This document shows positions 1 to 21,003 of a stretch of DNA of 32,000 bases, piece by piece. The DNA is from Kineococcus radiotolerans SRS30216 = ATCC BAA-149 (GTDB lineage Bacteria; Actinomycetota; Actinomycetes; Actinomycetales; Kineococcaceae). A model generated the notes under the pieces. The model was not told the DNA's origin. It did no database searches and worked only from the letters and a program-made list of their open reading frames with translations. Position 1 is the first letter of the stretch, and every line of letters begins with the position of its first letter. Position numbers and translations under genes: made by a program. The DNA lies in NCBI RefSeq assembly GCF_000017305.1, contig NC_009664.2, positions 3,420,001-3,452,000 on the forward strand, in the 5' to 3' direction.

Positions 1-732
1 GGCCTGCGCGTCGACCACGTCCTCGGGCTCTTCCGGCTGTGGTGGATCCCGCAGGGCGCCCCGCCCTCGGAGGGCACCTACGTCCGCTACGACCACGAGG
101 CCCTCATCGGGATCCTCGCCCTGGAGGCCCAGCGCGCCGGCGCCGTCCTCGTCGGCGAGGACCTCGGCACCGTCGAGCCCTGGGTGCGCGACTACCTCGC
201 CGACCGCGGCATCCTCGGCAGCGCCGTCCTCTGGTTCGAGTACGACGGCAAGGAGCCGAAGGCCCCCGAGGACTTCCGCGAGCTCGCCCTGGCCAGCGTC
301 ACCGTCCACGACCTGCCCCCCACCGCGGGCTACCTCGCCCAGGAGCACGTCGCGCTGCGCGACCGGCTCGGCCTGCTGACCCGCCCGGTCGCGGAGGAGC
401 GGGCCGCCGACGCCGCCGAGCAGGAACGCATCCTCGGCCTCGTCCGCGACCGCGGGCTGCTGGCCCCCGGGGCCGACGAGCGGAGCACCGTCGAGGCCCT
501 GCACCGCTACCTCGCGCTGTCGCCCTCGCTCATGGTCGGGGTCTCCCTCGTCGACGCCGTGGGCGACCGCCGCACCCAGAACCAGCCGGGCACGTCCTCG
601 GAGTACCCCAACTGGCGGATGCCGCTGACCGGACCCGACGGCGAGGTGGTCCTGCTCGACGACCTCCCCGGCCACGCCCGGGCGCGGTCGCTGGCCCGGA
701 CCGTCCAGGAGGCGCTCGCCGAGCGCGACTGA
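1..732 (+). CDS. malQ: 4-alpha-glucanotransferase (amylomaltase, GH77), C-terminal part; 5' end lies upstream of the window
   Basis: Frame 1 is open from nt 1 (GLRVDHVLGLFRLWWIPQG...GEDLGTVEPWVRDYL) and runs into track ORF 184..732. The motifs RVDHxxGLFRLWWIP, GEDLGTV, HDLP and NQPGTxxEYPNWR are GH77 signatures as I recall them. Stop TGA at 730-732. Confidence 0.85.
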   Translation, partial: GLRVDHVLGLFRLWWIPQGAPPSEGTYVRYDHEALIGILALEAQRAGAVLVGEDLGTVEPWVRDYLADRGILGSAVLWFEYDGKEPKAPEDFRELALASVTVHDLPPTAGYLAQEHVALRDRLGLLTRPVAEERAADAAEQERILGLVRDRGLLAPGADERSTVEALHRYLALSPSLMVGVSLVDAVGDRRTQNQPGTSSEYPNWRMPLTGPDGEVVLLDDLPGHARARSLARTVQEALAERD

Positions 733-739
733 CGCGGCC

Positions 740-767
740 GGGACGGTTCCCCCCCGGGCACCGTCCC
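740..767 (+). terminator. Stem-loop 8 nt after the malQ stop (gggacggt / accgtccc, C7-containing loop); possible intrinsic terminator or first hairpin of a C-rich-loop RNA
   Basis: Perfect 8-bp inverted repeat at 740-747 and 760-767 with loop tcccccccgggc. No U-tail, which is common in high-G+C actinobacteria. Confidence 0.4.
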
Positions 768-855
768 GACCGGTTCCGCCCGGGCCGGGACCCGCTTCCC
801 CCCGGAACGGGCCCCGGCGCTCCCCCCTCGGGCAGGACCACCGTGGCAGGTGCGC

Positions 856-876
856 CTTGCGGCGGGCTTGCGAGAC
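856..876 (+). promoter_or_regulatory. Copy A of a shared 21-nt element cttgcggcgggcttgcgagac (CTTGCG direct repeats 11 bp apart), upstream of the SARP regulator gene
   Basis: Exact 21/21 identity with 4453-4473, same orientation. It lies 52-72 nt upstream of the proposed SARP start at 928. Confidence 0.45.
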
Positions 877-915
877 CCTCTCCGCGGACCCGCCCCGCGC
901 GGGCGGCCGGGTCGC

Positions 916-921
916 TACGGT
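916..921 (+). promoter_or_regulatory. -10-like hexamer TACGGT placed 6 nt before GTG 928 (leaderless-type layout)
   Basis: TANNNT hexamer, 6-nt spacer gtgccc, then in-frame GTG. The same geometry occurs at three other genes in the window. Confidence 0.35.
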
Positions 922-927
922 GTGCCC

Positions 928-3900
928 GTGCGCTCCGGGGTCGCGGTGCGGGTGCTCGGCGCCCTCGAGGTCGGTTCATCCACGCAGGCGTCCGTGCTGC
1001 CGCCCACGCTGCGCACCGTGCTGGCCGCGCTCGTGGTCGACGCCGGGCACGTCGTGCCCGCCTCCGTGCTCGCCGAGCGGGTCTGGGACGAGGCGGGGAT
1101 CCGGCCGGCCACCTCCACGCTGCACAGCTCCGTGTCCCGGCTGCGCCGGCTGCTCGAACCCGGCGCCGGCCCCTGGCAGGTGCTGGTCACCCGCGCCCCC
1201 GGCTACCGGCTCGCCCTGGCGCCGGAGGCCCTGGACGCCGCCCGCTTCGAGCAGCTGCTGCGCCGCGCGCTGGCCGCCGCGGACACCGACCCGGGCGGGG
1301 CGCGCGCCGACGTCGCCGACGCGCTGGCGCTGTGGCGCGGCCCGGCCTACGCCGACGTCGAGGCCGGCTTCGCCCGCCAGGAGGCCCGTCGCCTGGAGAA
1401 CCTCCGGCTGGAGGGCCTGGAGCTGGCCGCCCGCCTGGACCTCGTGCTCGGCCGGCACCGGGAGGTCGTCCCCGACCTCGAGGAGCTGGTGCTGGCCCAC
1501 CCGCTGCGCGAGGAGCTGCGCGCCGCGCTCGTGCTCGCGCTCTACCGGTGCGGGCGCCAGGCCGACGCCTTGCAGGCCTTCGAGGACGGCCGGCGGCTGC
1601 TCGCCGACGAGCTGGGCATCGACCCCGGCCCGCAGCTGCGCCGGCTGCACGAGGCGGTGCTGCGCCAGGACCCCGCGCTGGAGGCCCCCGTCGTCCCGGC
1701 GGCCGACCCCCCGTCCCCGCCGTCGTCGCCGTCGTCCCCGGGGGCCGGGGACGACGGCGACGTCCCGGCCCGCACCCCGGTGCGCACCTCCACGAGCGCG
1801 CTGCCGCTAGCCACCACCGAGCTGCTCGGGCGCGCGGAGGACCTGCAGCGGCTGCTGGAGCTGCTGGAGCAGGCGCGGCTGGTGACGCTCACCGGCACCG
1901 GGGGCGTGGGCAAGACCCGGCTGGCCGCCGCGGCCGCCGAAGCCGCCGCCGAGCGCTTCGAGGGCGGCACCGTCCTGGTGCCGCTGGCTACCCTCGACGA
2001 CGCCCGGGCCGTGCTGCCCGCCGTCGTGCGGGCGCTGGGGCTGCCCGACGAGGCGGGGGCGGGCGCGCTCGACGCCGTCGCCGCCCACGTCGCGGACTCG
2101 CGGACCCTGCTGGTGCTGGACAACCTCGAGCACCTGCTGGACGCCGCCGCGGACGTCGCGGCCCTGGTGCGCCGCTGCCCGCGGCTGGTCGTCCTGGTCA
2201 CCTCCCGCGCCCCGCTGCGCGTCAGCGGGGAGGTCGAGCACCGGGTCGAGCCGCTCGGCCTGCCCGCCACCGGCGAGGACGTCCTGGGCTCCCCGGCCGT
2301 GCAGCTGTTCGCCGAGCGGGCGCGGGCCGTCGCGCCCGGCTTCGCCGTCAGCGCGCGCAACGCCGCGGTCGTCGCCGACATCTGCCGCGCCCTCGGCGGG
2401 ATCCCGCTGGCCCTGGAGCTGGCGGCCCCCCGCATCCGCGTCCTGGACCCCGCCGAGCTGCTCCGCCGCCTCGACCACGCCCTGACCTCCGGGCCGCGCG
2501 ACCTGCCCGCCCGCCAGCGCACCATGCGCGCCACCCTGGACTGGAGCTACGGGCTGCTCGACGCCCCCACCCGGCGGCTGTACCGCCGGCTGTCCGTCTT
2601 CACCGGGGGCTGGACCCTGCCGGTGCTGGAGGACGTCGAGGGCCCCGGCGTGCTGGAGCAGCTCGAGGCGCTGGTGGAGATGTCGCTGGTCACGGTGACC
2701 TTCTCCCGGGGCCGGCCGCGCTACGCGATGCTCGTGCCCACGCAGCAGCACGCCCGTCGCCTGCTCGAGGAGGACGAGCTCGCGGAGGTCTCCCGCGCGC
2801 ACGCCGAGGCCCACCTGCGGCTGGCCGAGCGGGCCGCCCCGCACTACCGCGGCGAGGGGCAGGTCGAGTGGCTGGAGCGCGTCGAGCTGGAGCACGCCAA
2901 CCTGCTCGCGGCCTTCGAGTGGGCGATGGGCGCCGGGGAGCACGCCACCGCCGCCCGCCTGACCTGGGCGACCTGGTTGTTCTGGTGGTTGCGCGGGCAC
3001 GTGCTCGTCGGCCGCCGCTGCGCGCGCGCCGCCGTGGACGCCACCGCCGACAGCCCGCTGGAGGGCCCCGCCGCGCTGGTCCCGGTGCGGGCGCGGATCG
3101 CGCTGGCCGCGATGGCCTTCGCCCAGGGCGACTTCGCCGCGGCCGACGAGGGGTGGGCCCGGGCCTGCGCCGACGCCGAGCGCGCCGTCGGCGTCGACCC
3201 CGTCGAGCGCGACGAGGCGCGGGCGAACTGCACCGCCGGGGCGGGCATCTGCGCCCAGGTGACCGGGGACCTCGCGGCCGCCGCCGACGCCCACCGGCGG
3301 GCGATCGCGCTGGCCCGGACCCTGCCCGAGGACACCTACGGGCCGTGGATCGTGCGGCTGAACCTGGTGTGGCTGGGCACGGTGCACTGGCGCGCCGGGG
3401 AGGCCGGCCCGGCCCGTCGCCAGGCCGAGGAGGGGCTGGCGCTGGCCCGCCGCGACGGCGACCGGCTGGCCACCTTCCTCGCCCTCTACAACCTCGCGCA
3501 GGCCGAGGCCGCCCCCGCCCCCGCCCGGGCGCTGCGCCACCTGCAGGAGGGCATCGAGCTGTCCGAGCAGATGGGCGACCTGGCCAACCTGGCCTACTTC
3601 CTGGAGGCGCTGGTGGTGCTGCGCGCCGCCGGCGGGCGGGCGGGCGACGACGGGGACCACGGGGACCACGGGAACGAGGCGGACGACGCGGCGGCGCTGG
3701 TGCGCCTGCTGGGGGCGGCGAGCGCGGCGCGCGAGACCGTCGGCTTCGAGGTCCACAACTACTACCTCCGCGACAGCGTGGGCCGCGCCGAGGCCGAGGC
3801 CCGCCTGCGCGCGCAGCTGGGGGAGCAGCGCTACGCGCGGGAGCTGGCCGCCGGGCGGCGGGCGCCGGTGGCCGAGTCCGTGCGCACCGCCGTCCGCGTG

Positions 3901-3945
3901 CGGCCGGTCACGGTTCCCCCGACCGCGCCCAGTCCCGCCAGCTGA
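928..3945 (+). CDS. Large SARP/AfsR-family transcriptional regulator (OmpR-type winged helix + BTAD + NB-ARC P-loop ATPase + TPR region)
   Basis: Track ORF 850..3945. N-terminus VRVLGALEV...LRTVLAALVV...YRL is a winged-helix DNA-binding domain. The BTAD-like segment runs ALALWRGPAYADV...LRRLHEAVLRQD. Walker A is LTGTGGVGKTRLA and Walker B is LLVLDNLEH. The C-terminus is helical-repeat (TPR-like). The start is uncertain (in-frame GTGs at 850, 922, 928, 946); 928 was chosen from the -10 spacing. Confidence 0.85.
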   Translation: MRSGVAVRVLGALEVGSSTQASVLPPTLRTVLAALVVDAGHVVPASVLAERVWDEAGIRPATSTLHSSVSRLRRLLEPGAGPWQVLVTRAPGYRLALAPEALDAARFEQLLRRALAAADTDPGGARADVADALALWRGPAYADVEAGFARQEARRLENLRLEGLELAARLDLVLGRHREVVPDLEELVLAHPLREELRAALVLALYRCGRQADALQAFEDGRRLLADELGIDPGPQLRRLHEAVLRQDPALEAPVVPAADPPSPPSSPSSPGAGDDGDVPARTPVRTSTSALPLATTELLGRAEDLQRLLELLEQARLVTLTGTGGVGKTRLAAAAAEAAAERFEGGTVLVPLATLDDARAVLPAVVRALGLPDEAGAGALDAVAAHVADSRTLLVLDNLEHLLDAAADVAALVRRCPRLVVLVTSRAPLRVSGEVEHRVEPLGLPATGEDVLGSPAVQLFAERARAVAPGFAVSARNAAVVADICRALGGIPLALELAAPRIRVLDPAELLRRLDHALTSGPRDLPARQRTMRATLDWSYGLLDAPTRRLYRRLSVFTGGWTLPVLEDVEGPGVLEQLEALVEMSLVTVTFSRGRPRYAMLVPTQQHARRLLEEDELAEVSRAHAEAHLRLAERAAPHYRGEGQVEWLERVELEHANLLAAFEWAMGAGEHATAARLTWATWLFWWLRGHVLVGRRCARAAVDATADSPLEGPAALVPVRARIALAAMAFAQGDFAAADEGWARACADAERAVGVDPVERDEARANCTAGAGICAQVTGDLAAAADAHRRAIALARTLPEDTYGPWIVRLNLVWLGTVHWRAGEAGPARRQAEEGLALARRDGDRLATFLALYNLAQAEAAPAPARALRHLQEGIELSEQMGDLANLAYFLEALVVLRAAGGRAGDDGDHGDHGNEADDAAALVRLLGAASAARETVGFEVHNYYLRDSVGRAEAEARLRAQLGEQRYARELAAGRRAPVAESVRTAVRVRPVTVPPTAPSPAS

Positions 3946-4429
3946 TGTCCAGGCCCACGAAGCGCGGCCGGGTGAACGGCCAGCACCGGCGCACCCAGGT
4001 CACCACGGCCGCGGTCAGCAGGTGCTCCACCTCCCCGCCGCGCAGGGCGTCGACCACCCACCAGGTGACGTCCACGTCCGCGTCGCGGGTGCCGCCGCGG
4101 GGCGGGTCCAGGTACACGCAGCCCAGCAGCTCGCTCTCCACCTCGTCGAGGAGGGCGTAGGAGAAGGACAGGCCCTCGGCCATCTCCCGCTCCTGGCGCT
4201 GCAGGTCGCAGAGGTCGTCGGCCGCGGCCAGCTCCGCCGGCGGCCAGCCCCACGCCTCGCCGAAGCAGGACCACAGGTGCTCGCGCGCCCCCCGCACGGC
4301 GGGCAGGTCCAGGTCGAGGTCCAGGGCGCGCAACGGGCGCAGGTGGTGCCCGGAGGGCAGCTCGAGGCGGGTGGGGTGCCGGAACCAGGACGGCAGCCAG
4401 GGGTCAGCACGGGTCGCGGGGTCGGCCAT
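3908..4429 (-). CDS. Putative GNAT-family N-acetyltransferase (173 aa)
   Basis: This is the C-terminal part of track ORF 3908..4882, starting at ATG 4429 (MADPATRADPWLP...). GGAGG lies just upstream of the ATG. The segment FSYALLD..ELLGCVYLDP...VTWWV...WPF resembles small GNAT acetyltransferases as I recall them. The family call is by pattern only. Confidence 0.55.
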   Translation of the reverse strand: MADPATRADPWLPSWFRHPTRLELPSGHHLRPLRALDLDLDLPAVRGAREHLWSCFGEAWGWPPAELAAADDLCDLQRQEREMAEGLSFSYALLDEVESELLGCVYLDPPRGGTRDADVDVTWWVVDALRGGEVEHLLTAAVVTWVRRCWPFTRPRFVGLDISWRDWARSGEP

Positions 4430-4452
4430 GCCCTCCACGGTCGCGCGGCGCG

Positions 4453-4473
4453 CTTGCGGCGGGCTTGCGAGAC
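4453..4473 (+). promoter_or_regulatory. Copy B of the shared 21-nt element, in the 127-bp divergent GNAT / whiB7-like intergenic region
   Basis: Identical to 856-876. It lies 24 nt from the GNAT start codon (opposite strand) and 84 nt upstream of the whiB7-like GTG. Confidence 0.45.
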
Positions 4474-4504
4474 GCTGCCGGGTGCGGCCCGCGGGGAGGG
4501 GGTC

Positions 4505-4531
4505 GGCGCGGGCCGGGCGCGGGCCGGGCGC
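4505..4531 (+). repeat. 11-nt tandem repeat ggcgcgggccg x ~2.5 in the whiB7-like leader
   Basis: Direct reading: the unit repeats at 4505-4515 and 4516-4526, with a partial third copy to 4531. Confidence 0.6.
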
Positions 4532-4556
4532 AAGGCCGGCGGACCACGCTGGAGCC

Positions 4557-4814
4557 GTGTTCGACCCCGAGACCCTTGAGAACCTCCCCTGCACCCGGGT
4601 GCCCCCGGAGCTCTTCTTCGTCGAGCGTCCCGACCAGGTCGCCGTGGCCAAGGCGCTGTGCGTGGGGTGCCCCGTGCGCACCGCCTGCCTGGCGGGCGCC
4701 CTGGAGCGCCGCGAGCCCGTCGGGATCTGGGGCGGTGAGCTCTTCGTCGACGGCGTGGCCGTCGCCGCCAAGCGCGGCCCCGGCCGCCCGCGCAAGGTGC
4801 CCGTCGCCGTCTGA
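4557..4814 (+). CDS. whiB7: WhiB7-like Fe-S transcription factor with C-terminal AT-hook (85 aa)
   Basis: The four Cys are spaced as in WhiB proteins (LPC...CVGCPVRTAC), followed by the G(I/V)WGGE turn (EPVGIWGGELF) and a C-terminal AT-hook KRGPGRPRK. The protein aligns by eye along its whole length with mycobacterial WhiB7 as I remember it. The start is uncertain: GTG 4557 has GGAG only 2 nt upstream, and an in-frame ATG at 4428 would add an Arg-rich extension. Confidence 0.85.
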   Translation: MFDPETLENLPCTRVPPELFFVERPDQVAVAKALCVGCPVRTACLAGALERREPVGIWGGELFVDGVAVAAKRGPGRPRKVPVAV

Positions 4815-4847
4815 GCGGCGGGGACCCCGCGCGGGCGGGGAGGACGG

Positions 4848-7403
4848 CTAGGAGGCGTCGCGCTCCTGCGCGCGCAGCGCACGGGCCACCCCGTCGCGGT
4901 TCTCCAGCACGAGGCGTCGCAGGGCCGGCGGGGCGTCGGTCTCCTCGGCCAGCCACCGGTCGGTGCGCTCCAGCAGGGCGGCGTCGGCGAGGTCCAGCGG
5001 GTACAGCCCCGTCACGATCTGCTGGGCCATCTCGTTGGTCCGCTCGGCCCACACCCCGCGCAGCGCCGCGAAGTACGGCTCCACGAAGGGCCGCAGCAGG
5101 GCCTCGTCGTGCGCGCGGCCGAAGCCGGCGATGACGGAGGCCTGCACCGCGTTGGGCAGGTCGCCGCGCTCGACGACGTCGGCCCACGCCCGCTGCTTGG
5201 CCTGCGCCGTGGGGACGGCCGCCCGCGCGGCCGCGGCCGAGCGCTGCCCGGTGGCGGTGGCGTCGCGGGCCAGCTCGGCCTCGACGGCCTCCGCCCCGAG
5301 CGCGCCCCCGGCCACGAGGGCGGTCAGCAGCGCCCAGCGCATGTCGGCGTCGACCTCGAGCCCCTCGATGGCCCGGGTGCCGTCGTAGAGCCCCCCGACG
5401 ACGGCGAGGTGCTCCTCGCTGCGGGCGAAGGAGGCGAAGGCGCGGGCGAACTGCAGCTGGGTGTCGCTGCCGGGGGCCGCGGCCCGCAGCAGCTCCAGCA
5501 GCGTCGTGGCCGTGCGGGTGCGGACCTCCTCGCGCCGGGCCGGGTCGGTGTAGAGCTCCACCGTCGTCGTCAGCTGCCGCAGCAGCACCAGGGCCACCGT
5601 GGAGTCCTCGGTGGCGGCGTTCCCGGGCAGCAGGGTGCTCAGCAGCAGGTCGACGTAGTCGCGAGCGGGGGACTCCCCGTCGCGGGTCATGTCCCACAGC
5701 GCCGCCGAGACCAGCGAGCGGGGCAGGGAGTCGCGGAACGCGTCCAGGTGCTGCAGCGCCGCGGTCAGCGAGCTCTCGTCGAGCCGGATCTTGGCGTAGG
5801 CGAGGTCGTCGTCGTTGACCAGCAGCAGGTCCGGGCGCTTGCGCCCCACCAGCTGCGGCAGGTCGGTGCTGGCGCCCGCGGCGTCCAGCTCGATCCGCTC
5901 GGTGCGCTCGAAGGTGCCCCCGACGAGGTCGTAGCAGCCCAGGGCGATGCGGTGCGAGCGCAGGTGCGGGTGCTCCGCGGGGGCCTCCTGCCGCAGCGAC
6001 GCCGCGGTGACGGTGCCGTCCGCGTCGGTGGTCAGCACCGGGCGCAGGGTCGCGACGCCGGCGGTCTCCAGCCACTCCCGGGACCAGGCGCTCAGGTCGC
6101 GGCCGGAGGTGGTCTCCAGCTCGCGCAGCAGGTCGACGAGCTCGGTGTTGCCGAAGGCGTGGCGGGCGAAGTAGGCCCGGACCCCGGAGAGGAACTCCTC
6201 GCGGCCCACGTAGGCGACGAGCTGCTTGAGGACGCTGGCGCCCTTGGCGTAGGTGATGCCGTCGAAGTTGACCTCGACGTCCTCGAGGTCGTTGATCTCG
6301 GCGACGATCGGGTGCGTCGTGGGGAGCTGGTCCTGGCGGTAGGCCCAGGACTTCTCCAGGGAGTTGAAGGTCGTCCACGACCCCACCCACTCGGTGGCCT
6401 CGGCCGCGGCGAGCGTGGAGGCGAACTCCGCGAAGGACTCGTTGAGCCACAGGTCGTTCCACCAGCGCATGGTCACCAGGTCGCCGAACCACATGTGCGC
6501 CAGCTCGTGCAGCACGGTGACGACGCGGCGCTCGACGGTGGCCCGGGGGACCTTGGAGCGGAAGACGTAGCTCTCCACGAAGGTCACCGCCCCGGCGTTC
6601 TCCATGGCCCCGGCGTTGAACTCCGGCACGAACACCTGGTCGTACTTGGCGAAGGGGTAGGGGCGGTCGAACTCGCGCTCGAAGAACTCGAAGCCCTGCT
6701 TGGTGGCCCGGACGACGTTGTCGGCGTCGAGGTGCTGCACGAGGGACTTGCGGCAGTAGATGCCCAGCGGGATCGTGCGGCCGTCGGCGGAGACGAGGGA
6801 GTCCTCCGACCCCTCGTAGGGCCCGGCGATGACCGCCGTCACGTAGGACGACAGCCGCGGGGTCTTCTCGAAGGTCCAGCGGGTGCCGGCCTCGACCGGG
6901 TGCTGCACGGCGACGGGGGCGTTGGAGACGACCCGCCAGTGCGCCGGGGCGGTGACGGTGAAGGTGAACTCGGCCTTGAGGTCCGGCTGCTCGAACACCG
7001 CGTAGACGCGGCGGGAGTCGGCGACCTCGAACTGGGAGTACAGGTAGACCTCGTCGTCGACGGGGTCGACGAAGCGGTGCAGCCCCTCGCCGGTGTTCAT
7101 GTAGCGGCAGTCGGCGACCACGAGCAGCTCGTTCTCGGCGGCCAGGCCGTCGAGGGCGATGCGCGCCTCGTCGGCGACGGCGGCCGGGTCGAGCGCGGTC
7201 CCGTTGAGGACCACCTCGTGCACCCGGGCGCTGATGAGGTCGATGAAGGTGGAGGCGCCGGGGGTGGCGGTGAAGCGCACCGTCGTCGTGGAGCGGAACG
7301 TCTCCGGCCCGGTCGTCAGGTCCAGGTCGACGTCGTAGTGCTCCACGGCCACGAGCGCCGCACGGGCCCGCGCCTCCTCGCGCGTCAGGTTCTCGCCGGG
7401 CAC
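4848..7403 (-). CDS. pepN: Aminopeptidase N (M1 family), 851 aa
   Basis: N-terminus VPGENLTREEARARAALV is typical of actinobacterial PepN. GAMEN is present (EFNAGAMENAG), as is the zinc motif HELAHMWFGDLV...WLNESFAEF. AAGGA lies 7 nt upstream of GTG 7403. The longer track ORF (to 7931) is an upstream artefact. Confidence 0.93.
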   Translation of the reverse strand: MPGENLTREEARARAALVAVEHYDVDLDLTTGPETFRSTTTVRFTATPGASTFIDLISARVHEVVLNGTALDPAAVADEARIALDGLAAENELLVVADCRYMNTGEGLHRFVDPVDDEVYLYSQFEVADSRRVYAVFEQPDLKAEFTFTVTAPAHWRVVSNAPVAVQHPVEAGTRWTFEKTPRLSSYVTAVIAGPYEGSEDSLVSADGRTIPLGIYCRKSLVQHLDADNVVRATKQGFEFFEREFDRPYPFAKYDQVFVPEFNAGAMENAGAVTFVESYVFRSKVPRATVERRVVTVLHELAHMWFGDLVTMRWWNDLWLNESFAEFASTLAAAEATEWVGSWTTFNSLEKSWAYRQDQLPTTHPIVAEINDLEDVEVNFDGITYAKGASVLKQLVAYVGREEFLSGVRAYFARHAFGNTELVDLLRELETTSGRDLSAWSREWLETAGVATLRPVLTTDADGTVTAASLRQEAPAEHPHLRSHRIALGCYDLVGGTFERTERIELDAAGASTDLPQLVGRKRPDLLLVNDDDLAYAKIRLDESSLTAALQHLDAFRDSLPRSLVSAALWDMTRDGESPARDYVDLLLSTLLPGNAATEDSTVALVLLRQLTTTVELYTDPARREEVRTRTATTLLELLRAAAPGSDTQLQFARAFASFARSEEHLAVVGGLYDGTRAIEGLEVDADMRWALLTALVAGGALGAEAVEAELARDATATGQRSAAAARAAVPTAQAKQRAWADVVERGDLPNAVQASVIAGFGRAHDEALLRPFVEPYFAALRGVWAERTNEMAQQIVTGLYPLDLADAALLERTDRWLAEETDAPPALRRLVLENRDGVARALRAQERDAS

Positions 7404-12682: not shown

Positions 12683-12756
12683 TGGAGCGGGCGACGGGAA
12701 TCGAACCCGCGTAGCTAGTTTGGAAGACTAGGGCTCTACCATTGAGCTACGCCCGC
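12683..12756 (-). tRNA. tRNA-Gly (anticodon UCC), CCA encoded
   Basis: The reverse complement GCGGGCGTAGCTCAATGGTAGAGCCCTAGTCTTCCAAACTAGCTACGCGGGTTCGATTCCCGTCGCCCGCTCCA folds by hand into a 74-nt cloverleaf. It has a 7-bp acceptor stem, GCTC/GAGC D stem, CTAGT/ACTAG anticodon stem with loop CTTCCAA, and a GTTCGATTC T-arm. Confidence 0.93.
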
Positions 12757-12859: not shown

Positions 12860-12933
12860 CGGGGTGTGGCGCAGCTTGGTAGCGCGTCCGCTTTGGGAGC
12901 GGAAGGCCCCCGGTTCGAATCCGGGTACCCCGA
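12860..12933 (+). tRNA. tRNA-Pro (anticodon UGG)
   Basis: CGGGGTGTGGCGCAGCTTGGTAGCGCGTCCGCTTTGGGAGCGGAAGGCCCCCGGTTCGAATCCGGGTACCCCGA folds by hand into a 74-nt cloverleaf. The anticodon stem is TCCGC/GCGGA with loop TTTGGGA, and the T-arm is CCCGG-TTCGAAT-CCGGG. CCA is not encoded. Confidence 0.93.
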
Positions 12934-14680: not shown

Positions 14681-15322
14681 GTGAGCGAGATCTTGAGCGC
14701 ACCGGGACTGGTGACGCCGCAGCAGGCCCGCACGGGCACGCCGGGGATGGGCCTCGACGACAACGTCTACCAGCGGCTCCTGCAGCAGCGGATCATCTGG
14801 CTCGGGACCGAGGTCCGGGACGACATGGCCAACGCCATCTGCGCGCAGCTGCTGCTGCTGGCCGCGGAGGACCCGGACGCGGACATCTTCATGTACATCA
14901 ACTCGCCCGGCGGATCGGTGTCCGCGGGCATGTCGATCTACGACACCATGCAGTACATCAAGCCGGACGTGGCGACGATCGCCACCGGCATGGCCGCGTC
15001 GATGGGGCAGTTCCTGCTCTGCGCCGGGGCCGCGGGCAAGCGCTCGGCGCTCCCGCACGCGAAGATCATGATGCACCAGCCGCTGGGCGGTCTGGGCGGT
15101 TCGGCCAGCGACATCAAGATCCTCGCCGAGCAGATCATCGCCACCAAGAAGCAGATGGCCGAGCTCATCGCGCAGCACTCCGGCCAGACCTTCGAGACGA
15201 TCACCCGCGACTCCGACCGCGACCGCTGGTTCTCGGCGCAGGAGGCCAAGGAGTACGGGCTCATCGACCACGTCGTCGGTCACACCAGCGAGGTCGAGGG
15301 CGGGGGCGGCACCGATGCCTGA
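14681..15322 (+). CDS. clpP1: ATP-dependent Clp protease proteolytic subunit 1
   Basis: [55 protein letters not shown]...GMAASMG...IMMHQP contains the catalytic Ser/His context. AGGGA lies 5 nt upstream of GTG 14681. The start is uncertain. Confidence 0.92.
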
Positions 15323-15365: not shown

Positions 15366-16022
15366 ATGATGACCCCGCAGTCGCGCCCGAACCCGGCGCA
15401 CGGCCCGTCCGCGCGCTACGTGCTGCCGCAGTTCGAGGAGCGCACGTCCTACGGGATGAAGCGCTCGGACCCGTACACCAAGCTCTTCGAGGACCGCATC
15501 GTCTTCCTCGGCGTGCAGGTGGACGACGCCTCGGCGGACGACATCATCGCCCAGCTCATCGTCCTGGAGTCCCAGGACACCGAGCGCGACATCATCATGT
15601 ACATCAACTCCCCGGGCGGGTCGTTCACGGCCCTCACGGCGATCTACGACACCATGCAGTACATCCGTCCGGACATCCAGACGTACTGCATGGGCCAGGC
15701 GGCGTCGGCGGCGGCCGTGCTGCTGGGTGCGGGGGCTCCCGGGAAGCGCTTCGCGCTGCCCAACTCGCGCATCCTCATCCACCAGCCGGCGATGGCCGGC
15801 GGCGACTACGGGCAGGCCTCCGACCTGGAGATCCAGGCCAACGAGATCCTGCGCATGCGCTCCTGGCTGGAGAGCACGCTGGCCTTCCACTCCCACCGCA
15901 CCGCCGACCAGGTGCGCGAGGACATCGAGCGCGACAAGTTCCTCACGGCCCGCGAGGCCGTGGAGTACGGCTTGATCGACGAGGTCCTCACCAGCCGCAA
16001 GGCGTCGGCTCCGCCGCTCTGA
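15366..16022 (+). CDS. clpP2: ATP-dependent Clp protease proteolytic subunit 2
   Basis: ARYVLPQFEERTSYG...RIVFLGVQVDDASADDIIAQLIVLESQD...[12 protein letters not shown]...GQAASAAAVLL...ILIHQP is close to mycobacterial ClpP2 from memory. ATG 15366 has GGAG 8 nt upstream and gives an N-terminal length like ClpP2. Track start 15315 (8-nt overlap with clpP1) remains possible. Confidence 0.92.
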   Translation: MMTPQSRPNPAHGPSARYVLPQFEERTSYGMKRSDPYTKLFEDRIVFLGVQVDDASADDIIAQLIVLESQDTERDIIMYINSPGGSFTALTAIYDTMQYIRPDIQTYCMGQAASAAAVLLGAGAPGKRFALPNSRILIHQPAMAGGDYGQASDLEIQANEILRMRSWLESTLAFHSHRTADQVREDIERDKFLTAREAVEYGLIDEVLTSRKASAPPL

Positions 16023-17518: not shown

Positions 17519-17536
17519 CCCCGGTCCGGGCACGAC

Positions 17537-17570
17537 GAAGGGCCCCGCACCTCGAGGTGCGGGGCCCTTC
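17537..17570. terminator. Bidirectional terminator hairpin between convergent clpX and the YceI-fusion gene (34-nt perfect palindrome)
   Basis: gaagggccccgcacctcgaggtgcggggcccttc is fully self-complementary, giving a ~15-bp stem with a tcga loop. It lies between the stops at 17518 and 17597. Confidence 0.7.
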
Positions 17571-17596
17571 GCCGTGCCCGGCCCGGGCGGGTGGGG

Positions 17597-18454: not shown

Positions 18455-21003
18455 CGGCGGTCCTCGCCGACCCGGGAGGTGTCCTCGAAGCGGGTGAGGT
18501 CCAGCGTCGAGGGGGCGTCGCCGGAGCCCAGGGTGATCTGCGCGGCGGACACGGTGTCCTCCTCGATGTCGACGCTGGTGGCGACCGGGGCGAAGCCGGC
18601 CGCGGTCAGGGTGTAGTGGCCCCCGGCCAGGTCCTCGAAGGAGTAGCTGCCGTCGGCGCCGGTGAGGACCGAGCCGACGACCTCGCCGGAGGAGTCGACG
18701 AGGGTGACCGCGGCCTCCTTCAGGACCCGCCCGTCGCTGGCGGCGACGACCGTGCCGGTGAGGCGGCCCCCGCCGGTGAGGACGAGGTCGCAGGCCAGGG
18801 CCCCGGAGTCGGGGACCTCGACGCCGCGGGCCAGCGGCCGGTGCGACTCGCTCTGGGCGGTCAGCACGTAGCTGCCCCCCATGAGCTGGTCGAAGGCGTA
18901 GCTGCCGCCCCCGTCGGTGCGGGTGGAGCCGACGACCTCACCGGTGACGTCGGTGAGGGTCACCAGGGCGCCGCGCACCCCGTGGTGGTCGCCGGCGTCG
19001 ACGTCGCCGGTGACCTCGTGGGCCAGCACCCGGCCGGTGATGGCCGAGCGGCCCGAGAGGGTCACGTCGCGGGTGATCGAGGTGTCGCCGACCCCCACGA
19101 GCGTCGCGGAGGGGGCCACGTGGGCCGCGGCGACGATCAGCAGGTAGGTGCCGCCGGTCGGCAGGGCGAGGCGGTAGGAGCCGTCCGCGCCGGTGGAGGT
19201 GCGCGAGACCTGCTGACCTGACTGGTCGGCCAGGGTCACCACGGCGCCGGCGAGCGGGCGCTGGTCGTGGTGGCGCACGGCGCCGGACAGCGAGAGCCCG
19301 GTGTCGGTGCGGGTGGGCTGGGCGGGCACGCTCGTCGTCTCCTCCCGGTCGGGGCGCGCGGCGCCGTGGGCCCCGGGGGTGCCGGTGGTCGTGGCGGCGA
19401 CGCGGTCGGGCGAGCTGGTCGTCGCCTCCGCGACATCCTGGCCGGTGCCGTCGTCGCTGCGCAACGCGCGCTCCTTGAAGAAGAGCGTGATGACGAACGC
19501 GATGAGGGCGAAGGGGGCCGCGAGGAGGAACACGTCGGCGATGGAGGAGCCGTAGGCGGCCTGGACGACCGCGCGCAGCGGCGCGGGGATGGCGTCGAGG
19601 TCGGGGACGCCGGTGCTGGAGCCCAGGGCGCTCGTGGCGGCGGCCGGGTCGATGCCAGCGGTGCTCAGGCCGGTCTCGAGGTGGCTGGTGACGCGGTGGC
19701 CGAGGACGGCGCCGAGCGCGGAGACGCCGATCGCCCCGCCGAGGCTGCGGGCGAAGGCGACGAAGGAGCTGGCCGAGCCCATGTCGCGGGCGTCGGCGAC
19801 GTTCTGCACGGCGAGCACGAGGTTCTGCATCATCATGCCGACGCCGAGGCCGATGAGGGCCATGTACGGGGCGACGACCCAGTAGTTCGTGTCGTACTCG
19901 ATGGTGCCCATGAGGGCGAGCCCGGCGGTGAGCAGGACGCCCCCGACGACGAGCCACGCCTTCCACTTCCCGGTGCGGGTGATGGCCTGCCCGGCGACGG
20001 TGGAGGCCAGGAAGAGCCCGGCGATCATCGGGATCGTCATGACCCCGGCCATCGTGGGCGACTCGTGGCGGGCGAGCTGGAAGTACTGGCTGAGGAAGAT
20101 CGTGGCGCCGAACATGGCGACCCCGACGAAGAGGCTGGCCGCGGCGGAGAGCGCGATCGTGGGGTTGCGGAAGAACTTCAGCGGGACGATCGGCTCCTTG
20201 GCCCGGTGCTCGGCCAGGACGGCCAGGGCCAGGAAGACGACACCGGCGGCGACCAGCGCCACGGTCCACCAGGACGCCCAGTCGAACTCGGTGCCGGCCA
20301 GGGAGACCCAGATGAGCAGGGCGGAGATGCCCAGGGCCAGCAGGATCGCGCCGAGGTAGTCGATCGACACCTCGCGCCGGGGCTGCTCGGGCAGCTTGAG
20401 CTTGAACTGGAGGACGAAGAAGGCGATGACCGCGAACGGGACGCCGACGTAGAAGCACCAGTGCCAGGACAGGTGCTCGGTGAGCACGCCGCCGATGAGC
20501 GGACCGCCCACGGTGGCCAGGGCGAAGGTGGCCCCGAGGTAGCCGGAGTAGCGGCCGCGCTCGCGCGGGCTGACCATCGAGGCGAGGATCACTTGGGCGA
20601 GGGCGAGCAGGCCGCCGCCGCCGAGGCCCTGGAACACGCGCAGGGTGATGAGCATCCCCATGCTGGTGGACAGCCCGGCGATGGCGGAGGCCACGACGAA
20701 GATGACCAGGGCGATCTGGACGAGCAGCTTCTTGGAGAAGAGGTCGGCCAGCTTGCCCCAGATGGGCGTGGAGATCGTGGTCGCGAGCAGCGCCGCGGTG
20801 ACGACCCAGGTGTAGCCGGACTCGGTGCCGTGGAGGTCGTTGACGATCCTCGGCAGGGCGTTCGAGACGACCGTCGACGACAGGATCGCGACGAACATGC
20901 CGAGCAGCAGGCCGGACAGCGCCTCGAGGATCTCCTTGTGGGACATCTTCGGCGCGACGCCCGGGGCGGGCTGGGTCGAGGTGGTGGGGGTCGTGGTGCT
21001 CAT
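18451..21003 (-). CDS. DHA2-type (EmrB/QacA-like, 14-TMS) MFS transporter with a ~280-aa C-terminal extension of three tandem carboxypeptidase-regulatory-like repeats (850 aa)
   Basis: ATG 21003 (MSTTTPTTSTQPAPGV...). I count 14 hydrophobic segments by eye. MFS motifs are present (GKLADLFSKKLL, LRVFQGLGGGG). After TMS14 (IADVFLLAAPFALIAFVITLFF) comes a ~60-aa low-complexity linker, then three repeats of 85-104 aa. Each repeat has G.V....G.P..GA.VTL.D..G..V....T...G.Y.......G.Y.L. The rest of track ORF 18451..22188 is an artefact. Confidence 0.88.
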   Translation of the reverse strand: MSTTTPTTSTQPAPGVAPKMSHKEILEALSGLLLGMFVAILSSTVVSNALPRIVNDLHGTESGYTWVVTAALLATTISTPIWGKLADLFSKKLLVQIALVIFVVASAIAGLSTSMGMLITLRVFQGLGGGGLLALAQVILASMVSPRERGRYSGYLGATFALATVGGPLIGGVLTEHLSWHWCFYVGVPFAVIAFFVLQFKLKLPEQPRREVSIDYLGAILLALGISALLIWVSLAGTEFDWASWWTVALVAAGVVFLALAVLAEHRAKEPIVPLKFFRNPTIALSAAASLFVGVAMFGATIFLSQYFQLARHESPTMAGVMTIPMIAGLFLASTVAGQAITRTGKWKAWLVVGGVLLTAGLALMGTIEYDTNYWVVAPYMALIGLGVGMMMQNLVLAVQNVADARDMGSASSFVAFARSLGGAIGVSALGAVLGHRVTSHLETGLSTAGIDPAAATSALGSSTGVPDLDAIPAPLRAVVQAAYGSSIADVFLLAAPFALIAFVITLFFKERALRSDDGTGQDVAEATTSSPDRVAATTTGTPGAHGAARPDREETTSVPAQPTRTDTGLSLSGAVRHHDQRPLAGAVVTLADQSGQQVSRTSTGADGSYRLALPTGGTYLLIVAAAHVAPSATLVGVGDTSITRDVTLSGRSAITGRVLAHEVTGDVDAGDHHGVRGALVTLTDVTGEVVGSTRTDGGGSYAFDQLMGGSYVLTAQSESHRPLARGVEVPDSGALACDLVLTGGGRLTGTVVAASDGRVLKEAAVTLVDSSGEVVGSVLTGADGSYSFEDLAGGHYTLTAAGFAPVATSVDIEEDTVSAAQITLGSGDAPSTLDLTRFEDTSRVGEDRR
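18454..19299 (-). other. Region encoding the three tandem beta-sandwich repeats of the pump tail (protein-level repeats, diverged at DNA level)
   Basis: Repeat 1 runs GLSLSGAVRHH...VTLSGRS. Repeat 2 runs AITGRVLAHE...LVLTGGG. Repeat 3 runs RLTGTVVAAS...ITLGSG plus a short tail. Boundaries come from hand counting (282 aa). Confidence 0.7.

Follow-up and report, generated by a model that had tools for sequence, protein, structure and literature searches.

A repeated 21-mer in Kineococcus radiotolerans as the probable core of a SARP-type activator box

The stretch of DNA considered here comprises 32,000 nucleotides of Kineococcus radiotolerans (the window), in a region of 74% G+C where the gene for a large, AfsR-like regulator of the SARP family is flanked by two copies of one 21-nucleotide sequence. 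These copies of the 21-mer, CTTGCGGCGGGCTTGCGAGAC, are exact and both stand on the plus strand, at 856-876 (copy A) and 4453-4473 (copy B). The explanation that best fits the evidence, at a probability of roughly 0.6, is that the 21-mer makes up the core of an activator box of the SARP type, which drives the gene for a GNAT-like acetyltransferase and a leftward transcript and, separately, a WhiB7-like gene of the Wbl family, here called whiB. The geometry of the boxes, their conservation, and their specificity to particular sites, which carry this explanation, are direct observations.

Comparison of the locus with its orthologs in Kineococcus sp. SYSU DK002 (L012), Kineococcus sp. SYSU DK003 (L021), K. 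aurantiacus (L022), K. rhizosphaerae (L023), K. arenarius (L025), and a Kineococcus-like metagenome contig (L146) illustrates which part of the 21-mer is constrained. An earlier interpretation made from the letters of the window alone (the sequence-only reading) had proposed conservation at orthologous loci as a check, and this is found for the pentamer core CTTGC-N6-CTTGC, which all the Kineococcus loci examined keep at the two orthologous positions, but not for the full 21-mer. In minus-strand orientation, the sites form a gapless alignment of the pattern [GGCAG-like]-N6-GCAAG-N6-GCAAG-N10-nAnnnT, so that the constant geometry lies on this strand and not, as had been supposed, on the plus strand. 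The alignment contains 13 instances from eight genomes or contigs (six Kineococcus, the metagenome contig, and Nocardioides anomalus). An nAnnnT hexamer occurs 10 nt past the proximal pentamer in 13/13 instances, with the A at its second position and the T at its sixth invariant, a G two bases upstream of it in 10 of the 13, and the spacers diverged. The hexamers seen after the N10 spacer are CACGGT, GACCGT, GAGAGT, CAGGCT, CACCGT, and GAGCGT, and that of copy B is followed after 6-7 nt by the GNAT start codon. An exception in the pentamers is box B of K. arenarius, the proximal pentamer of which is GCAGG. Of the 11 positions that do not belong to the pentamers, A and B share 11 in K. radiotolerans, 9 in SYSU DK002, and 3-7 elsewhere, which suggests that the 21/21 identity, peculiar to K. 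radiotolerans, reflects local homogenization rather than functional need. The elements of the proposed promoters in the window are as follows.

856-876, minus strand: box A, GTCTC-GCAAG-CCCGCC-GCAAG, with the proximal pentamer the reverse complement of 856-860 and the distal pentamer that of 867-871
878-882, minus strand: GAGAG, a degenerate third repeat upstream in box A, at 11 bp from the distal pentamer
840-845, minus strand: CACGGT, a -10-like hexamer that follows box A after 10 nt; nAnnnT at equal spacing in all six species
725-832, minus strand: predicted leftward non-coding transcript, between box A and the malQ stop codon, with two strong hairpins
916-921, plus strand: the SARP gene's own -10, TACGGT, boxless, followed after 6 nt by GTG 928
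4453-4473, minus strand: box B, with the proximal pentamer the reverse complement of 4453-4457 and the distal pentamer that of 4464-4468
4475-4479, minus strand: third upstream repeat of box B, GGCAG
4437-4442, minus strand: -10-like hexamer of the GNAT promoter, GACCGT, with ATG at 4429-4427, 7 nt on
4508-4534, plus strand: whiB box, GCGGG (4508)-N6-GCGGG (4519)-N6-GCAAG (4530-4534), one perfect and two degenerate pentamers in 11-bp tandem
4545-4550, plus strand: -10-like hexamer of whiB, CACGCT, 10 nt past GCAAG and 6 nt before GTG 4557

Constancy of position also indicates which gene each box would serve. Because box B stands 22-23 nt from the GNAT start codon even in the loci that have no whiB gene (SYSU DK003, K. 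aurantiacus, K. rhizosphaerae, and the metagenome contig), it is on this spacing the promoter box of GNAT and not of whiB. The distance from box A to the -10 of the SARP gene is 33, 44, 44, 47, 59, or 128 nt depending on the species, while the leftward hexamer is always 10 nt away; because the one distance varies and the other is fixed, box A is, as judged from its position, not a canonical autoregulatory site of the SARP gene. The SARP gene's own promoter was also checked for a GCAAG-like repeat where a SARP box would canonically lie, and none was found there.

The combination of pentamer, spacing, and hexamer is highly restricted in its occurrence, as counted on both strands of the 32-kb window and in about 95 kb of related loci. 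GCAAG-N10-nAnnnT is found three times in the window (0.76 expected), at box A, box B, and the whiB box; extended by a further 6-7 nt and a start codon, it is found twice (0.03 expected), both times at annotated gene starts. In the other Kineococcus loci it appears at the homologous sites only. A weight-matrix scan, with a matrix that included the window's own sites, gives these three sites 39.5, 38.8, and 26.8 bits, with the next best site at 2.5 bits and a maximum of 16.6 bits in 100 composition-matched random sequences. A generic promoter scan of 650-4900 detected no sigma-70-like -35/-10 pair, an absence that fits dependence on an activator.

Taken alone, the repetition of the 21-mer is suggestive but not compelling. 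No third copy is present in the window at three or fewer mismatches, and, with local hairpins and the clpP1/clpP2 paralog pair set aside, the 21-mer is the longest distant exact repeat there, the runners-up being 18-mers. (The sole distant exact repeat that exceeds it is a 26-mer at 14934-14959 and 15640-15665, in the adjacent ClpP paralog genes clpP1 and clpP2.) In simulations from Markov models built on the window, with 200 sequences per order, a distant exact repeat of at least 21 nt occurred in 0%, 2.5%, and 5.5% of sequences at orders 1, 3, and 5, respectively. Much of what the sequence-only reading had described stands: the identical element on the same strand at both positions, the estimate of chance occurrence at the order of 10^-2 (with which these 0-5.5% agree), the two CTTGCG hexamers per element at an 11-bp period, the location of copy A 52-72 nt upstream of the SARP start as measured to GTG 928, and the 127-bp GNAT-whiB intergenic region (4430-4556). 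Its statement that both copies are non-coding holds with the SARP start at GTG 928, the start on the NCBI records for the window (L001) and SYSU DK002, but fails for copy A with a start at GTG 850, to which gene calls on Logan contigs lengthen the SARP open reading frame, covering the copy. The sequence TAnnnT-N6-8-GTG, conserved in six species, favors GTG 928 over GTG 850. Among the matches listed by a scan of a genome collection with the 17-mer CTTGCGGCGGGCTTGCG, a list filled by chance occurrences in unrelated high-GC genomes, Kineococcus sp. SYSU DK002 alone matches the window.

Known SARP-dependent promoters provide the closest structural paradigm for these sites. The direct repeats in SARP targets are spaced at 11 or 22 bp, and the one on the 3' side lies 8 bp from the -10; the AfsR box at the afsS promoter of Streptomyces coelicolor extends from -40 to -19, overlapping a poor -35 and lying beside a weak -10, CACTGT, with two SARP domains bound side by side that assume the -35 contact (PMC10936776, PMC11301090). 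In most Kineococcus loci the boxes show the same 11-bp direct repeats, GCAAG-N6-GCAAG, with a third repeat a further 11 bp upstream. If GNAT transcription starts at the start codon, the predicted start, the pentamers would occupy about -39 to -35 and -28 to -24, so that on predicted start sites the boxes adjoin the -10 and overlap the -35 region; the -35 is poor or absent, and the -10 hexamers are suboptimal, without the first T, as is CACTGT of afsS. Between box and -10 there are 8 nt when the heptamer GCAAGnn is taken as the unit of repetition, and 10 nt when counting starts from the pentamer. As far as sequence can tell, then, each feature by which a SARP-dependent promoter is recognized is present in these boxes, and the sequence-only reading was right that the element has the geometry of a SARP-family site, next to a gene for an AfsR-like protein with SARP, NOD, and TPR domains.

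The system most similar to this one is that of AfsR and the afs box in S. coelicolor (PMC10936776, PMC11301090). There too, a large regulator combining SARP, NOD/NB-ARC, and TPR domains is paired with 11-bp direct repeats that lie on one face of the DNA, overlap the -35, and adjoin a weak -10 (CACTGT there; CACGGT, GACCGT, or CACGCT here), and target genes lie beside the regulator gene. The differences are that the repeat here is GCAAG, that the helix LHSSVSRLRR takes the place of VRTYASRLRK of AfsR, and that the predicted targets are GNAT, the WhiB7-like gene, and the leftward transcript instead of afsS, with mRNAs predicted to be leaderless. The small cluster-situated SARPs ActII-ORF4, DnrI, and RedD, which use heptameric repeats, likewise have repeats 11 or 22 bp apart, often three of them, the one on the 3' side lying about 8 bp from the -10. 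Unlike theirs, the locus described here lies among housekeeping neighbors (malQ, pepN, rpiB, tig, clpP, and clpX) and in no recognizable biosynthetic gene cluster.

The protein encoded between the two boxes has Pfam domains Trans_reg_C, BTAD, AAA_22/NB-ARC, and TPR_12 and aligns with AfsR (PDB 8k60) at E = 1.7e-41 over residues 24-614. By its architecture it is an AfsR-type large SARP, yet it is not an AfsR ortholog because its score against the NCBIfam AfsR equivalog NF053617, 193.7 bits, is far under the cut-off of 1430. Its recognition helix, LHS(S/Y)VSRLR, is common to the SARPs of five Kineococcus and of Nocardioides sp. C4-1, with LHAVVSRLR in N. anomalus. The AfsR helix, VRTYASRLRK, differs from all of these: the base-contacting Arg is kept, Arg87 is replaced by His, and Thr88 by Ser or Ala. 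This pattern is consistent with a specificity shared by the SARPs of Kineococcus and Nocardioides and unlike that of AfsR.

Co-occurrence of boxes and regulator points to the same protein. Every Kineococcus locus has boxes A and B on either side of the SARP gene. In N. anomalus, in which the SARP is 45% identical and the GNAT gene follows it in tandem (not convergently), the sequence upstream of GNAT is GCAAG (7890)...GCAGG-N6-GCAAG-N10-GACGCT-N7-ATG. In Nocardioides sp. C4-1, the SARP is 52% identical and convergent on a GNAT-like gene preceded by GCCAG-N6-GCAAG-N6-GCCCG-N10-CACCGT-N6-ATG. A GNAT homolog without a SARP neighbor (L147) was searched, and the box was not found. From this co-occurrence we infer that the adjacent AfsR-like SARP-NOD-TPR protein is the likeliest binder of the boxes. 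Nocardioides sp. C4-1 has one more site (L228 3979-3994, minus strand), at which a perfect GCAAG-N6-GCAAG precedes a CbiX-like gene located about 1 kb from that for the SARP. A clear nAnnnT at N10 is lacking there; the CbiX-like gene may be a further regulon member in Nocardioides.

Several observations weigh against the proposed SARP-type box, and other explanations of the same sites have to be considered with them. The first-position T is missing from every box-associated -10 hexamer, and the published distance of 8 bp from the -10 fits the heptamer GCAAGnn only, the gap from the pentamer being 10 nt. The whiB box has a single perfect pentamer and is known from three genomes, two of them closely related, while the leftward promoter at box A lacks a recognizable product. 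It is also possible that the regulator of the boxes is encoded elsewhere. Such a regulator might be a different SARP or another winged-helix activator of the OmpR/PhoB type, with the AfsR-like gene a co-regulated bystander, and direct repeats at 11-bp spacing, being typical of the whole OmpR/PhoB winged-helix class, would suit it equally. Overlap with the -35 next to a weak -10 is, however, a hallmark of SARPs, and the box, GNAT, and this SARP subfamily occur together in two orders of Actinobacteria despite a rearrangement from convergent to tandem genes; together with the lack of a box at the GNAT homolog that has no SARP neighbor, this makes an activator encoded elsewhere rather unlikely. 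Less likely still is the model of the sequence-only reading, in which the 21-mer acts on the plus strand, copy A serving the SARP gene for autoregulation and copy B controlling the divergent GNAT/whiB7 pair. Both copies do lie upstream of plus strand regulator genes in K. radiotolerans, their 11-bp repeat is SARP-like, and a protein bound to copy A might nevertheless influence the SARP promoter, which starts 44 nt away. SARP boxes need a fixed position, though, and that of box A relative to the SARP -10 ranges over 33-128 nt, which also counts against autoregulation through copy A. In addition, no -10-like hexamer follows either copy at the right plus strand spacing, copy B holds its position to GNAT in the four whiB-less species or contigs, and whiB has a box of its own.

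Explanations that deny the sites any role in transcriptional control are left with very little probability. A chance repeat, or a dispersed family of the REP or MITE type without regulatory function, has in its favor that up to 5.5% of composition-matched windows contain so long a repeat. A REP or MITE family would have many scattered copies; two copies are found in the 32-kb window and orthologous copies only in the related loci, with none further in the window or in the approximately 95 kb, and the element has neither terminal inverted repeats nor a hairpin of its own. Conservation of pentamers, spacing, and hexamer at both positions in Kineococcus and again in Nocardioides, with flanks that diverge, largely refutes this explanation, as judged from the alignments. 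Equally remote is a post-transcriptional element, either a leader peptide beginning at TTG 857/4454 (MRRACETL...) or a motif within the 5' ends of the RNAs. The two TTG frames do give the same 8 residues at both copies, continuing through two synonymous codons past the 21-mer. In the other species the spacer is not conserved and neither, as a result, is the peptide; the candidate peptide MRRACETL was rejected on the non-conserved spacers and the non-synonymous changes in SYSU DK002, E to G and T to P. As to an RNA motif, the minus-strand box would lie upstream of the predicted start, and so outside the RNA, and there is no Rfam match.

The SARP-type box favored here implies a mechanism in which we infer where transcription starts, that the effect is activation and not repression, and which protein binds. 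The box would consist of GCAAG every 11 bp on the non-template strand, usually with a third, weaker, GGCAG-like repeat upstream, overlapping the -35 region and ending 10 nt before a weak -10 of the form nAnnnT. By analogy with AfsR at afsS, two or three SARP domains, most likely those of the adjacent AfsR-like SARP-NOD-TPR protein, would lie next to one another along one face of the DNA, replacing the missing -35 contact and recruiting RNA polymerase. Box B would then give rise to a leaderless GNAT mRNA from the minus strand; box A to a leftward transcript, of obscure function, that diverges from the SARP gene; and the weaker plus strand box to a leaderless transcript of the WhiB7-like gene. 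The promoter of the SARP gene itself has a good TAnnnT -10 and no box. That the mRNAs of SARP, GNAT, and whiB are all leaderless is predicted from nAnnnT hexamers 6-7 nt before each start codon and from the lack of convincing Shine-Dalgarno spacing.

An exact 11-bp tandem duplication, GCGGGCCGGGC present twice at 4505-4531 of the window, so that an exact 16-mer begins at both 4505 and 4516, accounts for both of the degenerate units in the upstream part of the whiB box. The middle unit reads GCGAG in SYSU DK002, and in K. arenarius GCAAG-N10-CAGGCT-N7-GTG is found upstream of, and in frame with, the gene in an intergenic region that has otherwise diverged. These sites suggest that whiB is probably under the same control, exerted at a weaker box of its own and not at the 21-mer. 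The claim that the SARP controls whiB7 accordingly survives in altered form, by way of a separate plus strand box, and not by way of copy B, which is GNAT's. Among 80 loci of metagenomic WhiB relatives (261 kb, at most 72% identity), of use as a negative control only, none has GCAAG-N6-GCAAG upstream, so that the upstream GCAAG box of whiB is specific to Kineococcus among WhiB relatives.

The classification of the Wbl protein itself calls for some caution. It matches Pfam Whib at E = 1.6e-15, with cysteines arranged as C-X22-C-X2-C-X5-C, and its AT-hook-like tail is KRGPGRPRK in K. radiotolerans, with a GRP core and not RGRP, and the canonical KRGRGRPRK in K. arenarius. The EPxGxWGG turn is present, and before the beta-turn, instead of the EPW triplet, K. 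radiotolerans has EPV and K. arenarius EPA. No A/T run or AT-rich WhiB7 site was found in the 127 bp of 4430-4556, such a site being one that the autoregulated WhiB7 promoter carries upstream of its -35. On these features "WhiB7-like" is a fair label, the protein being at most a candidate member of the WhiB7 subclass. The GNAT neighbor of the Wbl gene recalls eis in the mycobacterial WhiB7 regulon. In WhiB7 of Mycobacterium and Streptomyces, to which the protein is similar in being a Wbl with a C-terminal AT-hook-like RGPGRPRK and the EPxGxWGG turn, EPW before the beta-turn is a criterion of the subclass (PMC10245118). The Kineococcus gene is unlike WhiB7 in having EPV or EPA in place of EPW, in an upstream region without an A-tract or AT-rich site, in having a SARP-type box and a predicted leaderless start instead of a long leader or upstream open reading frame, and in being missing from the locus in several Kineococcus species. 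In the literature searched, no report tying WhiB7 to a SARP was found.

The arrangement of the genes around the boxes is as follows.

ending at 732, plus strand: malQ
928-3945, plus strand: large AfsR-like SARP (Trans_reg_C, BTAD, NB-ARC/AAA, and TPR), the candidate binding protein
3908-4429, minus strand: GNAT-like acetyltransferase, relatives of which carry Acetyltransf_3
4557-4814, plus strand: Wbl gene with a C-terminal AT-hook-like sequence, WhiB7-like
from 4848, minus strand: pepN

The SARP and GNAT genes are convergent, and their 3' ends overlap by 38 nt in K. radiotolerans (3908-3945) and by 38-47 nt across the Kineococcus loci; an RNA started from box B would therefore extend, in antisense, into the SARP gene, possibly as feedback on it. 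The whiB gene is present between pepN and GNAT in K. radiotolerans, SYSU DK002, and K. arenarius and absent, with pepN abutting GNAT, in SYSU DK003, K. aurantiacus, K. rhizosphaerae, and the metagenome contig. Elsewhere in the window, a near-perfect, loopless palindrome with 34-nt arms of 94% complementarity (17520-17587), just past a clpX-like open reading frame, is probably a bidirectional terminator, and a 113-nt unit occurring three times at 18602-19245, with 61-73% identity and a spacing of 255-276 nt, may represent a repeated protein domain. Two tRNA genes, at 12686-12756 (minus strand) and 12860-12933 (plus strand), are divergent.

Transcription from the leftward promoter is predicted to start at about 832-833, leaving a stretch of about 100 nt before the malQ stop codon with two strong hairpins (z = -2.8). 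Comparison within Kineococcus detected no conserved open reading frame in this transcript and no conserved consensus structure, the hairpins being species-specific and the consensus fold weak (-7.8 kcal/mol), and no Rfam match was found for it. The product may be a short RNA, an antisense RNA to the 3' end of malQ, or nothing useful. The interval between the malQ stop codon and box A also contains two GC-rich hairpins without U-tails, at 738-815, and each Kineococcus species has an analogous GGGACG...CGTCCC hairpin; the hairpins at 738-815 are probably the malQ terminator, which would also stop the leftward transcript.

At a broader level, it is possible, though offered only tentatively, that a signal-sensing, STAND-type large SARP conserved in Kineococcus and Nocardioides directly switches on a small, non-biosynthetic set consisting of GNAT, the leaderless WhiB7-like gene where this is present, and a short divergent RNA. 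Two of the SARP's own boxes would bracket its gene, each directing transcription against it or away from it, so that antisense transcription from activated GNAT through the SARP gene would provide built-in feedback. If this is true, a WhiB7-type resistance regulator would be under the control of an ATPase/TPR sensor and not of the usual ribosome-stalling leader. AfsR-type large SARPs outside Streptomyces are essentially uncharacterized with respect to their DNA sites and targets, and the locus offers a testable box, with GCAAG repeats and a fixed spacing to the -10, together with a minimal predicted regulon, conserved in two orders of Actinobacteria, and a distinctive recognition helix, for which the GCAAG box might prove the partner. 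Confirmation would mean that SARPs control genes outside antibiotic biosynthesis, that a WhiB7-like regulator has been rewired to a different input, and that the SARP promoter rule can predict regulons from sequence in very GC-rich genomes, where ordinary promoter scans fail.

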